From: an uncultured Alphaproteobacteria bacterium
GTDB lineage: Bacteria; Pseudomonadota; Alphaproteobacteria; Rs-D84
DNA: 64,000 bases
NCBI GenBank assembly: GCA_944392815.1
Contig: CALXXY010000003.1
Coordinates: 43,520-107,519, forward strand
Direction of reading: 5' to 3'
Under the pieces are notes generated by a model that made no database searches, had not been told where the DNA came from, and saw only the letters and a program-made list of their open reading frames with translations. This document shows, in pieces, positions 4,343 to 55,111 of the stretch. Numbering within the stretch: the first letter of the stretch is position 1; every line of letters starts with the position of its first letter. Made by a program: the position numbers and the translations under genes.

Positions 4343-4396
4343 ATTGAAGTCAATGGGGACATTGTTTTCGGGACCTAGAAAATCCTGTAAGTATAC
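4343..4396 (+). promoter_or_regulatory. 5' fragment of the structured leader family (homologous to the 5' end of the 55112-55334 leader)
   Basis: ATTGAAGTCAATGGGGACATTGTTTTCGGGACCTAGAAAATCCTGTAAGTATAC aligns with ATTGAATCAGTGGGGACATTGGTTCAGGGATTTAGCAATCCTGTATCCATAC on the minus strand near 55.3 kb. Confidence 0.7.
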
Positions 4397-4422: not shown

Positions 4423-4608
4423 TTGTCGTATGATTATATTACTATCGCACAGGATGCCTGTTCAGATGGCTATATATCCGCCGGTACAGCCACCAGTTGC
4501 CTGGCACCCAATCCGGGCGGTTCGTGCATAATGTACGCCCCGGTGGGCGTATCGTATACAGACGCCACCGGCACATATGAATTCGAACAACCCTGCGCCA
4601 TGGAATAA
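4423..4608 (+). pseudogene. Headless C-terminal fragment of a Cys-rich secreted protein (paralog of 47183-47509)
   Basis: GYISAGTATSCLAPNPGGSCIMYAPVGVSYTDATGTYEFEQPCAME is nearly identical to the C-terminus of 47183-47509. It has no signal peptide and there is an in-frame TGA at 4345. Confidence 0.75.
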
Positions 4609-46434: not shown

Positions 46435-46515
46435 ACCGAAAATTGTACCGCAGCATTCACGTAAAATCAAATAAGTCCTTGCACCACCCGCGCACACGCG
46501 ATAATATAACAAATG

Positions 46516-46690
46516 TCGGTGGGTGTTCCACCGATGGGGTGTCGAAACCCGTTAAACTAGCGTCAGGCAACTGATGAATTAAACTCCGATCTAGCATGGT
46601 TGGAGGGCTTGCGAATATATTGAATAAGCAGCACTATTCTAGTTTATAGTTTCGAACCTCCAACCACCTGAATTTTTCTGGTGGTTTTTT
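46516..46690 (+). promoter_or_regulatory. Structured attenuator-like 5' leader of the Cys-rich secreted gene pair
   Basis: Hairpin 46516-46534. Long stem 46542-46560/46639-46655. 46597-46606 is complementary to 46657-46666. Terminator AACCACC/GGTGGTT plus a T-run. Confidence 0.65.
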
Positions 46691-46726
46691 CATTATCAAA
46701 ACAAATGAAACAAGGGAGGTTGCATA

Positions 46727-47170
46727 ATGAAAAAACATTTAATACTGGTCGGGGTGTTTTCCGTGGCCATAGTCCAATCACAACCCGCGATGGCCGTGAC
46801 GAAGTGCGTGGCGTTAAACAGCCGCAGTACAACGTGTGCATATGCAAGTTCAGAATTCGATGTTACTGATTGGACAACAACATGCACTACAAACGATGTA
46901 AGTATTCCGATAAAAGGCATAGGGATATGTGCTAATGCAAGTGCTAGCGCCCTAGGAACAACAACAACACAACTAGACCTGTCGTCCACTGCTGATGATA
47001 ACAAATATTGTTGGTGCCGTATGATAAGTCCTGCTGTGTCGCGCTGGGTGTATGTCAACTCAACCCCGACAGCGGGCGATTGTCACCATAGGTGCGCATC
47101 ATACTGCGCGACGAATGTTCGTGATACACCGCTCTTTCGGCGTGGAATGTTCGGCTCGCTTTCTGACTAA
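46727..47170 (+). CDS. Secreted Cys-rich protein (CWC...CxxxCAxxC type)
   Basis: GGGAGG RBS, signal peptide ending AMA and eight Cys residues. Confidence 0.82.
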   Translation: MKKHLILVGVFSVAIVQSQPAMAVTKCVALNSRSTTCAYASSEFDVTDWTTTCTTNDVSIPIKGIGICANASASALGTTTTQLDLSSTADDNKYCWCRMISPAVSRWVYVNSTPTAGDCHHRCASYCATNVRDTPLFRRGMFGSLSD

Positions 47171-47182
47171 TGGGGGCGCACA

Positions 47183-47509
47183 ATGAAAAGAATACTGATT
47201 TTATTTGCATTATGTTGTCCGGTATCTGCGATGGCCCTGGATATAGAAGGTGGAGTAGTCGTTGGTCCGCCAGTGCAGGCAATAAGCACCCCATCAACTT
47301 CATGCCCGTCGGGTTATACTGCGGTGGTCGAGGAACATATGGATATTGCGAACAGTTCATGCCCATCGGGCTATACGTCCGCCGGCACAGCAACCAGTTG
47401 TATCGCGTCCAACCCCGGCGGGTCGTGTATTATGTACGCCCCGGTGGGTGTATCGTATACAGACACCACCGGCATATATGAATTCGAACAACCCTGCGCA
47501 ATGGAATAA
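47183..47509 (+). CDS. Small secreted Cys-rich protein with CPSGYT repeats
   Basis: G-rich RBS, signal peptide, two SCPSGYT motifs and C-terminal YTDTTGIYEFEQPC. Confidence 0.85.
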   Translation: MKRILILFALCCPVSAMALDIEGGVVVGPPVQAISTPSTSCPSGYTAVVEEHMDIANSSCPSGYTSAGTATSCIASNPGGSCIMYAPVGVSYTDTTGIYEFEQPCAME

Positions 47510-47854
47510 ACCACCCCGGCACTTCGTGCCACCCCTCCGCAGAGGGGAACTTTGCCCCGCAACGGTACGTAGCTAGTTCCCCTCTGCGGAGGGGTGGCGC
47601 GCTTTGCGCGACGGGGTGGTTTACTCGTGACTCGTGAGTGTGTCGCTCGGGCGCGTTGCGCCCTGTGCGTATCCTCGTATTTATTCGGTCTGCACTTCGT
47701 TTGACCTCATATACTCGGATTCATCGCGAGCAAAGCGTGGCGATCCAGTAAATAAAAAGCACTGCGGGCGAATGCTCGCAGACATATTGCACTGGATTGC
47801 CACAGTCGTACGACAACGTTTTCAACGTTGATCGTACTCCTTCGCAATGACAGG
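47510..47854. repeat. Mosaic REP-like element: inverted Y pair (REPIN-like) plus module Z
   Basis: ACCACCCCG...CCACCCCTCCGCAGAGGGGAACT (47510-47551) has an inverted copy at 47575-47620. 47730-47854 matches 25023-25148. Confidence 0.85.
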
Positions 47855-54338: not shown

Positions 54339-55079
54339 TTAAAAAGACATCTTTACACCGGCAATGATTTCATGTTTGTACAAATCAACATCTGAATCAA
54401 ACACGCCCTTCATTCCGCCCAGTTCTGTTTTGTGATCAACATGGAACATGCCATTTGTGTATTCTACACTGCCCAAATCGGTATATTTATACGCGATATT
54501 GAACGCAACGTTATCTGTGACCGGGACTTCGATACCAACGCCAACATTCCACGACATATTTTCAGTTGTCGCCGGCGTTTCCCAGAACCAATTACCACTG
54601 CGGAAATTATTTTCTGATTCGATTGTGGTATACCCAATACCCGCCGTCACATACGGGATAAACTTATATACTTTATACCCGTATTTAACGTTCAATCCCA
54701 GTGTGCTTTCATTGTATGTAAAGTTTCTGACATCGGTATCATTTGGCTTGTCACCATTTTCAGCCGCATCAAACCCAACCGCGTTAAAGAAATTATCGAC
54801 TTGGCCGTATTCCGCCTCGACTGACAATATGCCGGCTTTTTCCATATCAAATTCATAACCGACCGCAATTTTTGGTGAAAATTTATGTCCTTTGCCAGAC
54901 CAACTTTCGTGTTTATTGCCATCAAATTCGGCCCACACGCCATTTTGTGACGATTTTTCCACACGATTTTCAGACACAGATGTAATGCTGTACGCAACCT
55001 GTGGATTGATATAAAACCCATCAGCCATTGCACCAGTTGCGACCAAGGCAAACACAGAACCACATAAGATTTTTTTCAT
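54339..55079 (-). CDS. Eight-stranded outer membrane beta-barrel protein (OmpA-TM/opacity-like)
   Basis: Signal peptide ending AMA, PYVTAGIGY, AYKYTDLG and a C-terminal Phe. Confidence 0.88.
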   Translation of the reverse strand: MKKILCGSVFALVATGAMADGFYINPQVAYSITSVSENRVEKSSQNGVWAEFDGNKHESWSGKGHKFSPKIAVGYEFDMEKAGILSVEAEYGQVDNFFNAVGFDAAENGDKPNDTDVRNFTYNESTLGLNVKYGYKVYKFIPYVTAGIGYTTIESENNFRSGNWFWETPATTENMSWNVGVGIEVPVTDNVAFNIAYKYTDLGSVEYTNGMFHVDHKTELGGMKGVFDSDVDLYKHEIIAGVKMSF

Positions 55080-55111
55080 TGCTTCTTCCTTTTTTTGTTT
55101 GAACGTTAAAC

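Follow-up and report, generated by a model that had tools for sequence, protein, structure and literature searches.

Two leaders in the stretch of DNA analysed here (64,000 nt from an uncultured alphaproteobacterium, hereafter the window) belong to a single family of structured RNAs, about 180 nt long, since the family covariance model, R2, recovers both of them (E 2e-47 and 2.4e-10). The explanation we regard as the most probable is that they are cis-acting 5' leaders, each with its own promoter and two mutually exclusive folds, OFF by default, which would gate both transcription termination and translation of the gene behind them. A preliminary description of the window had proposed two leaders sharing one architecture, and the motifs it named were located as described. 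The parts of leader 1, the plus-strand copy, are:

46479-46507, plus: promoter-like region, TTGCAC followed by GATAAT/TAATAT, as read from the sequence
46510-46690, plus: leader 1, full unit (P1, P2, P3, P3a, P4, P5 and terminator); R2 184.1 bits, E 2e-47
46516-46534, plus: P1 hairpin; changes on both sides in 7 of 7 pairs
46536-46539, plus: GGGG, which together with CCC flanks the 5' strands of P2 and P3 (46542-46560)
46542-46548 with 46649-46655, plus: P2, long-range helix; double changes in 7 of 7 pairs
46553-46560 with 46639-46646, plus: P3, long-range helix; double changes in 8 of 8 pairs
46584-46591, plus: X (CTCCGATC), 5' strand of P4 and putative anti-antiterminator; P4 is 96.8% paired, with double changes in 8 of 8 pairs in the class-wide set
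46598-46606, plus: Y (GGTTGGAGG), G-rich, 3' strand of P4 or 5' strand of the putative antiterminator
46607-46632, plus: P5 hairpin; double changes in 5 of 5 stem pairs
46613-46627, plus: P5 loop, GAATATATTGAATAA, near-invariant, conserved in alignments A2 and A6
46633-46650, plus: Palt2, alternative hairpin (ACTAT ... ATAGT), stem 46633-46637 with 46646-46650, loop formed by the P3 3' strand (46639-46646)
46657-46665, plus: X' (CCTCCAACC), partner of Y; 3' half in the terminator arm, 5' half anti-SD
46662-46668 with 46680-46686, plus: intrinsic terminator (AACCACC/GGTGGTT, T-run to 46690), present in the MFE fold; 6 of 7 pairs double-changed on the class-wide alignment A9
46714-46719, plus: SD of the leader 1 gene, GGGAGG, within GGGAGGTT (46714-46721)
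46714-47170 including the SD, plus: gene for a 147-aa Cys-rich exported protein, ATG at 46727
47183-47509, plus: 108-aa Cys-rich protein, also behind leader 1

The 147-aa protein has no Pfam match. The MFE of leader 1 lies well below that of shuffled sequences (z -4.95; 0 of 200 shuffles equally good). In this fold AACCUCC is paired with the gene's SD, GGGAGGUU, and encloses the terminator hairpin, whose 5' arm begins with the last four bases of X'. The P5 loop holds the 8-nt palindrome AAUAUAUU, which may permit loop-loop kissing of two copies or may be a protein site.

Leader 2 is a divergent member of the family with extra hairpins, and its MFE is also far below that of shuffles (z -4.74; none of 200 equally good). 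It comprises the following features:

55337-55111, minus: leader 2; R2 44.8 bits, E 2.4e-10 in the window and 3.5e-9 genome-wide
55232-55227, minus: X, CCTGAC
55220-55214, minus: Y, GGTCGGG
55142-55133, minus: X', CTTCCCGACC, including CCCGACC at 55139-55133
55136-55115, minus: terminator, called by a scanner
55090-55085, minus: SD AGGAAG, of which GGAAG (55089-85) is complementary to CTTCC of X'
54339-55090 including the SD, minus: OMP beta-barrel gene, ATG at 55079 (OMP_b-brl, PF13505, E 8e-12)

Thus the genes behind the two leaders are those that had been announced, two encoding Cys-rich secreted proteins and one an OMP.

A third copy, restricted to the 5' part, had been claimed at 4343-4396 (+). 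Aligned with leader 2, this stretch matches its initial ~50 nt (P1, GGGA and the 5' strand of P2) and nothing beyond, and the R2 search of the window does not recover it. On this alignment it is a truncated 5' remnant of a leader-2-type copy rather than a leader. Directly after it, positions 4440-4600 encode a piece closely resembling the C-terminal part of the 108-aa Cys-rich protein (CPSGY...PGGSCIMYAPVGVSYTD...), and the sequence there points to a rearranged or partial paralogue locus. Two further 5'-only fragments, with P1, GGGG and the P2 5' strand followed by unrelated sequence, are found in the same genome outside the window, at C1:91615-91726 and C1:71353-71421; they are nearly identical to each other over ~100 nt. 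In addition, a copy with a broken P3 lies at C2:2739-3134 upstream of a 64-aa ORF; this ORF resembles the Cys-rich protein at C4:291 in nothing but the signal peptide and has the appearance of a decayed duplicate.

A short-word BLAST search with leader 1 against the 927-kb assembly of its own genome returned several paralogues. Their conserved blocks are, in order, the 5' hairpin, GGG...CCC, GCGTC, a CTCCAACC..GGTTGGAG hairpin, the hairpin with the loop GAATATATTGAATAA, and CCTCCAACCACC...GGTGGTTTTT; the stretches between these blocks are divergent yet still complementary. A pattern made from two of the blocks matched at least 118 stretches in a species-level genome collection, and by their record titles the matches listed were all in gut-type Alphaproteobacteria MAGs, many of them 'Candidatus Enterousia'. 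A covariance model built from leader 1 alone (R1) recovered 107 copies in 90 loci searched. With the family model R2 we found 12 copies in the own genome, leader 2 included. Across the order it matched 138 of the 151 genomes sampled, among them 107 of 107 from the own genus; there were about 1200 matches, and copies per genome reach at least 17. Of 149 genomes of other alphaproteobacterial families, 15 gave matches of 26-76 bits over the full model length. Two loci of other genomes carry tandem arrays: L067 (580-1711) and L084 (580-1479) contain five and four complete promoter-leader-terminator units, respectively, arranged head to tail with a period of ~240 nt before a gene for a 63-71-aa HTH-like protein. 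Neighbouring units in these arrays show compensatory differences in P2 and P3.

The main fold is well supported by covariation. On the 107 copies found by pattern, 96.2% of the cells are paired, compared with 34-44% in slid controls, where the 3' partners were displaced by 1-3 columns, and 47 of the 48 pairs show double changes. Nearly the same values were obtained with 32 class-wide rows, a set that includes distant members and in which no row was picked by sequence pattern (94.0% versus 35-49%, again with 47 of 48 pairs double-changed); the alignments were fitted to the model, so that these pair counts lean towards the main fold, and changes in related copies are not independent events. The GGG:CCC pairs flanking P2 are 94.9% paired and show A-U covariation. 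An extension of P2 by GGGG:CUCC, possible in the MFE fold, was rejected, since the G column that varies has its partner on the CCC side rather than in X'.

Y has a second possible partner. In P4 it pairs with X (46584-46591), and it is also complementary to X' (46657-46665). An all-against-all covariation scan outside the main fold gave two clear signals, and one of them joins position 9 of Y to X' and not to X (GC 58, UA 25), which has no partner at this place. The Y:X' helix is 95.1% paired on the first alignment (A5), with 32 double changes at this extra pair. On the class-wide set (A9) the value is 87.7%, compared with 36-54% for slid partners, and six of the nine pairs have double changes. 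The 52 double-change cells seen there exceed the 17.2 +/- 5.0 of shuffled alignments, and none of 500 shuffles reached 52. Columns 389-391, in the terminator arm, covary in A9 both with Y and with the 3' arm of the terminator, which means that evolution has preserved both of two mutually exclusive helices. In 96 of 101 copies, Y:X' is by prediction the more stable of the two duplexes open to Y (-15.7 kcal/mol, versus -12.0 kcal/mol for X:Y). Within the own genome, nine of the 12 copies carry an X/Y/X' triplet of the CUCCAACC type and three carry other matched triplets; CCCGACC is common to leader 2 and to the copy before an XRE gene.

The second signal of the scan, a pair flanking the 3' strand of P3, is the strongest outside the main fold (AU 46, UA 37) and belongs to Palt2, a stem of 4-5 bp. 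Class-wide, this pairing is kept in 85.2% of the cells of A9, compared with 58.3 +/- 2.8% in shuffles, in forms such as UA (12), CG (9) and AU (4). Given the geometry, Palt2 and P3 are probably mutually exclusive, because linkers of only 0-2 nt would not let them coexist. The covariation check among homologs thus supports the main fold, Y:X' and Palt2, and the terminator/antiterminator switch suspected from the window agrees with the comparative evidence, in which the X:Y, Y:X' and terminator helices all covary.

The position of the element relative to genes is equally regular. Each unit consists of promoter, leader, intrinsic terminator, RBS and gene. A sigma-70-like promoter matching at least 9 of 12 positions precedes 75 of 102 units; 58 of these 75 have a -10 box whose end lies 8-9 nt before P1. 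Leaders 1 and 2 escaped the simple sigma-70 promoter scanner, as only 3 of 6 positions of their -35 boxes match. Behind 83 of the 102 full-length units lies a co-oriented ORF with an SD, and 13 of the 19 units without one are inner units of tandem arrays. The start codon follows the unit at a median distance of 26 nt (IQR 22-28), which is too close for the gene to have a promoter of its own. As in an intrinsic-terminator attenuator, the leader of a co-oriented gene contains a GC hairpin with a U-run, together with an evolutionarily maintained alternative helix that has bases in common with the terminator.

Among distant members, the RBS and the 5' half of X' vary in concert: we found CUUCC/GGAAG (leader 2 and others), CUCCC/GGGAG, ACAUCC/GGAUGU and AGCUCC/GGAGCU. 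Predicted duplexes between X' and the cognate RBS have a mean of -9.54 kcal/mol, compared with -7.36 kcal/mol for non-cognate pairs, and the cognate mean was reached in none of 5000 permutations, although related copies inflate this result somewhat. Strong SDs are rare in the own genome: of 866 ORFs of at least 150 aa, crudely called, about 0.5% have GGAGG in the 20 nt before them. Among 84 leader-associated genes the proportion is 14%. The cognate match and the strong SDs tie the RNA to the gene behind it, and the sequence evidence argues that the X' segment gates translation as well as termination.

Two other ways of coupling the leader to the ribosome were considered and rejected. A leaderless leader peptide starting at the conserved 5' NUG has no consistent ORF: reading frames from this NUG are as long as other frames, their stops are scattered, and no conserved leader ORF was found. 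The UG of the NUG seems instead to close P1 as G-U pairs. Binding of a ribosome to an SD-like Y is contradicted by those members in which Y is not SD-like.

We looked for transcripts in three metatranscriptome runs from two studies and one doubtful run. Short contigs from two runs of one study cover 46597-46809 at a depth of 3-7, and one crosses the terminator; such contigs cannot show RNA ends and may come from DNA carry-over. In all four runs a short G-rich palindromic stretch at 47488-47575 collects many unrelated contigs, with a summed depth of up to 282, and behaves as a dispersed repeat.

The proteins encoded downstream are diverse. The 83 genes include 12 for Cys-rich exported proteins of the type seen in the window, 17 for HTH-like (mini-HTH) proteins of 60-67 aa and seven for XRE-type proteins. 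Three clusters of three members each comprise small proteins of 53-59 aa, small proteins of 75-78 aa and exported-looking proteins of 181-185 aa. OMP barrels, PAP2, a YadA-anchor protein, GT2 and GmrSD are also represented, and an HTH_3 gene follows one of the 12 own-genome copies. Of the 83 proteins, about 41 begin in the manner of signal peptides, so that the proposed regulation of surface antigens fits roughly half of the targets; 30 of the genes belong to five clusters whose small proteins are of HTH type or lack a Pfam match.

From these observations we propose the following mechanism. In the OFF fold, the default, the 5' half of the leader would clamp the 3' half through P2, P3 and X:Y and leave X' free. 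The 3' part of X' would then enter the intrinsic terminator and its 5' part would sit on the SD of the gene. Most transcripts would end as an RNA of ~180 nt, and any read-through mRNA would be translationally masked. In the ON fold, the 3' half alone would form a three-way junction with Y:X' as the closing stem and P5 and Palt2 as hairpins, much like sRNA-Xcc1; this would withdraw X' from both terminator and SD, and the gene could be transcribed and translated. Both predicted sets of helices, the bases they share and the complementarity to the SD are shown by comparison of the copies; the direction of switching we infer. By prediction, the OFF fold is more stable than the nested ON fold, by 11.9 kcal/mol for the truncated transcript and by 14.8 kcal/mol for the full-length one, which suggests that OFF is the default and that something must favour ON. 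The balance is presumably tipped either kinetically or by a factor, which could be a protein, a small ligand or the short transcript itself. As candidate triggers, a protein or ligand might bind to the three-way fold or to the P5 loop, which is near-invariant and partly palindromic; transcription might pause in a UTP-sensitive manner in the U-rich loop of the terminator; or the short RNA might act as IsrK does.

In having overlapping X, Y and X' segments and a terminator within a 5' leader, the family is similar to classical terminator/antiterminator/anti-antiterminator attenuators and to riboswitch expression platforms. It differs from the classical attenuators in that there is no leader peptide and the same segment also masks the SD.

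A search of the whole window against Rfam at gathering thresholds returned tRNAs only, an E-value scan of a 401-nt piece gave nothing real, and no described family reached its threshold. The best Rfam match of each of the four leader 3' halves scanned was sRNA-Xcc1 (RF02221), with 36.0, 36.5, 26.7 and 23.4 bits, the third being leader 2 (55220-55125); none reached the gathering score of 53 bits, and the likeness appears only in windows of 116-221 nt and is lost in larger searches. The matches span the whole model (1-87) in one register, placing its closing stem on Y:X' and its hairpin 2 on Palt2. The closing stem and the two hairpins of sRNA-Xcc1 thus have counterparts in Y:X', P5 and Palt2, all of which covary, and the ON fold looks like a three-way junction of this type. 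Here, however, the domain sits in a 180-nt leader, would be unfolded by the 5' half, and is fused to a terminator. sRNA-Xcc1 homologues are reported to form tandem arrays in Xylella, where they are annotated beside C4 and IsrK (PMC12189769), and are located upstream of symE in integron cassettes (bioRxiv 10.1101/2025.06.18.660453) and of a gene for an ORF6N-domain protein, a phage gene in APSE (PMC7313666). Tandem arrays and a position upstream of genes are therefore traits that, on those accounts, they have in common with the leader family.

The preliminary description had compared the leaders to C4/ash-type immunity leaders. This proved a useful lead, but in four short-window Rfam scans neither C4 (RF01695) nor IsrK (RF01394) gave a match at E <= 10. 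Nor could we find a cognate downstream target of the c4 type (a2/b2): when the P3, P2 and P5-loop strands were compared with the 110 nt downstream, cognate and non-cognate duplex energies were equal. The idea that the switch was domesticated from a phage was not borne out by the analysis. Still, the IsrK leader of Gifsy-1 (PMC4825925) and c4 of P1/P7 have features in common with the family, namely their own terminator, a translationally masked read-through mRNA, alternative folds, and repeated complementary segments up- and downstream of an antisense core. In the leader family, unlike in these RNAs, the repeated element appears from the sequence to control a terminator. The short form of IsrK is reported in the same source to activate its own read-through mRNA (PMC4825925).

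The closest known RNAs in overall organization are the Brt RNAs of Bartonella. Tu et al. 2016 (PMC5387305) and a review (PMC8070961) describe Brt1-9 as Bartonella-specific and as located only before trp (XRE) genes. In common with the leader family, these RNAs occur in Alphaproteobacteria in multiple copies, measure ~180-200 nt, carry a promoter of their own and lie directly before a promoterless gene (same sources). We fetched 43 Brt loci with a primer from the supplement of Tu et al. 2016 (PMC5387305). A structure drawn by analogy on one Brt copy was 94.3% paired in a plain MAFFT alignment of 40 copies, compared with 31-47% for slid partners, and compensatory changes were concentrated in P2 (six of nine pairs) and P3 (six of eight). 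The correspondence includes P1, GGG-P2-CCC, P3, P3a, the X:Y hairpin, P5, CUGA..UCAG around the 3' strand of P3, and an X' after P2. Brt RNAs differ in having a long P5 and no canonical U-tract terminator, and their X' pairs with the SD region. The P5 loop of Enterousia is absent from Brt, as it is from distant members of the family. The targets differ as well: most of those of the leader family are surface or secreted proteins, and the window copies precede genes for a Cys-rich exported protein and an OMP, not an XRE-type HTH gene as in Brt. The XRE protein behind one copy of the own genome is 44% identical over 71 aa to the protein behind a Brt copy of Bartonella grahamii (E 3e-21).

In 12 of 14 Brt loci, R2 run with filters off aligned over its full length at the correct position and strand, as the top match in 10 of them, with 5.7-13.4 bits (E 0.012-1.4); unrelated matches reached equal scores, and none of the sequence-level matches to Brt is significant. 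The single-sequence model R1 found nothing on these loci, and the 3' half of Brt gave no sRNA-Xcc1 match in Rfam. A literature search returned no paper linking Brt to sRNA-Xcc1, C4 or IsrK; publications naming Enterousia, among the matches listed, had no RNA in the title or the opening of the abstract. Judged by sequence and predicted fold, the leader family is a Brt-like RNA with an sRNA-Xcc1-like core, and it is in no Rfam family at threshold.

It is possible, though in our opinion unlikely, that the units are multicopy genes for trans-acting small RNAs. The terminated RNA of ~180 nt would then be the product and would act on other transcripts, for example on read-through mRNAs carrying the same X/Y/X' 'address', and control of the downstream gene would be secondary or dual. 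Each unit does have its own promoter and terminator, and the tandem arrays of 4-5 complete units, with their 13 inner units, fit better to a trans-acting small RNA than to a simple leader. The X/Y/X' segments common to nine of the 12 own-genome copies, with other matched triplets in the remaining three, would suit such an address. A trans action has also been proposed for Brt1, whose knock-down alters badA expression (PMC5387305), and shown for IsrK (PMC4825925). However, the fixed distance of 22-28 nt to a co-oriented start codon, which leaves no space for a promoter, and the match between X' and the cognate RBS are not expected of an RNA acting elsewhere. X and Y are paired in the stable fold, so that little of the RNA would be free to act. 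Moreover, Hfq, ProQ and CsrA were not found in the own genome (96.8% complete), in which Rho and a single NusG are present.

We give a similarly low probability to a true riboswitch, in which a small molecule would bind either the four-way junction (P3, P3a, P4 and P5) or the three-way ON fold and thereby decide termination. The complex covarying fold, the conserved unpaired bases (GCGUC, the A-rich linker and the P5 loop) and the riboswitch-like expression platform are in line with this reading, as is the response of a Brt1 reporter to the haem level cited in the review (PMC8070961). On the other hand, the genes downstream (surface proteins, XRE regulators, a glycosyltransferase, GmrSD) have no common metabolic theme, the P5 loop of Enterousia is missing from Brt and distant members, and each 0.9-Mb genome holds at least 10 copies.

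A wider and rather doubtful extension of the cis-acting leader would unite Brt, the Enterousia family and the members in at least 15 other alphaproteobacterial families in one large class, so far unrecognised, of chromosomal two-state leaders built on an sRNA-Xcc1/c4-like core. The matched X/Y/X' triplets would serve as address codes. Within an address group, the terminated RNAs, abundant and further increased by tandem arrays, would activate in trans the read-through mRNAs that carry the same address, in the manner of IsrK. If this were true, surface proteins and small regulators would be under the control of a purely RNA-based regulon in genomes without Hfq, ProQ and CsrA.

A non-functional dispersed repeat or mobile-element footprint that merely contains a terminator is very improbable: the element is multicopy, has left 5' remnants (at 4343-4396 of the window and two more in the genome) and adjoins variable genes, but the covariation counts contradict this reading, with compensatory changes in every helix even between neighbouring tandem copies, its position relative to start codons is fixed, and it has been kept across 15 other alphaproteobacterial families.

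The preferred reading thus remains a two-state, cis-acting leader. The review reports that deletion of the 3' stem-loop of Brt1 raises trp1 transcription (PMC8070961). For the Brt RNAs, whose fold and mechanism had been left open, the present comparison supplies a structure tested by comparison and a wider family, and the leader family forms a link between them and sRNA-Xcc1, c4 and IsrK, a group that is poorly understood. The size and diversity of the family would suffice for an Rfam entry and for mutational tests. With few regulators in genomes of about 0.9 Mb, these gut Alphaproteobacteria nonetheless keep at least 10 copies of one elaborate RNA before genes for small DNA-binding proteins and for variable proteins of the surface. 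Should the switch operate in the inferred way, it would probably be a main layer of control over their cell surface.
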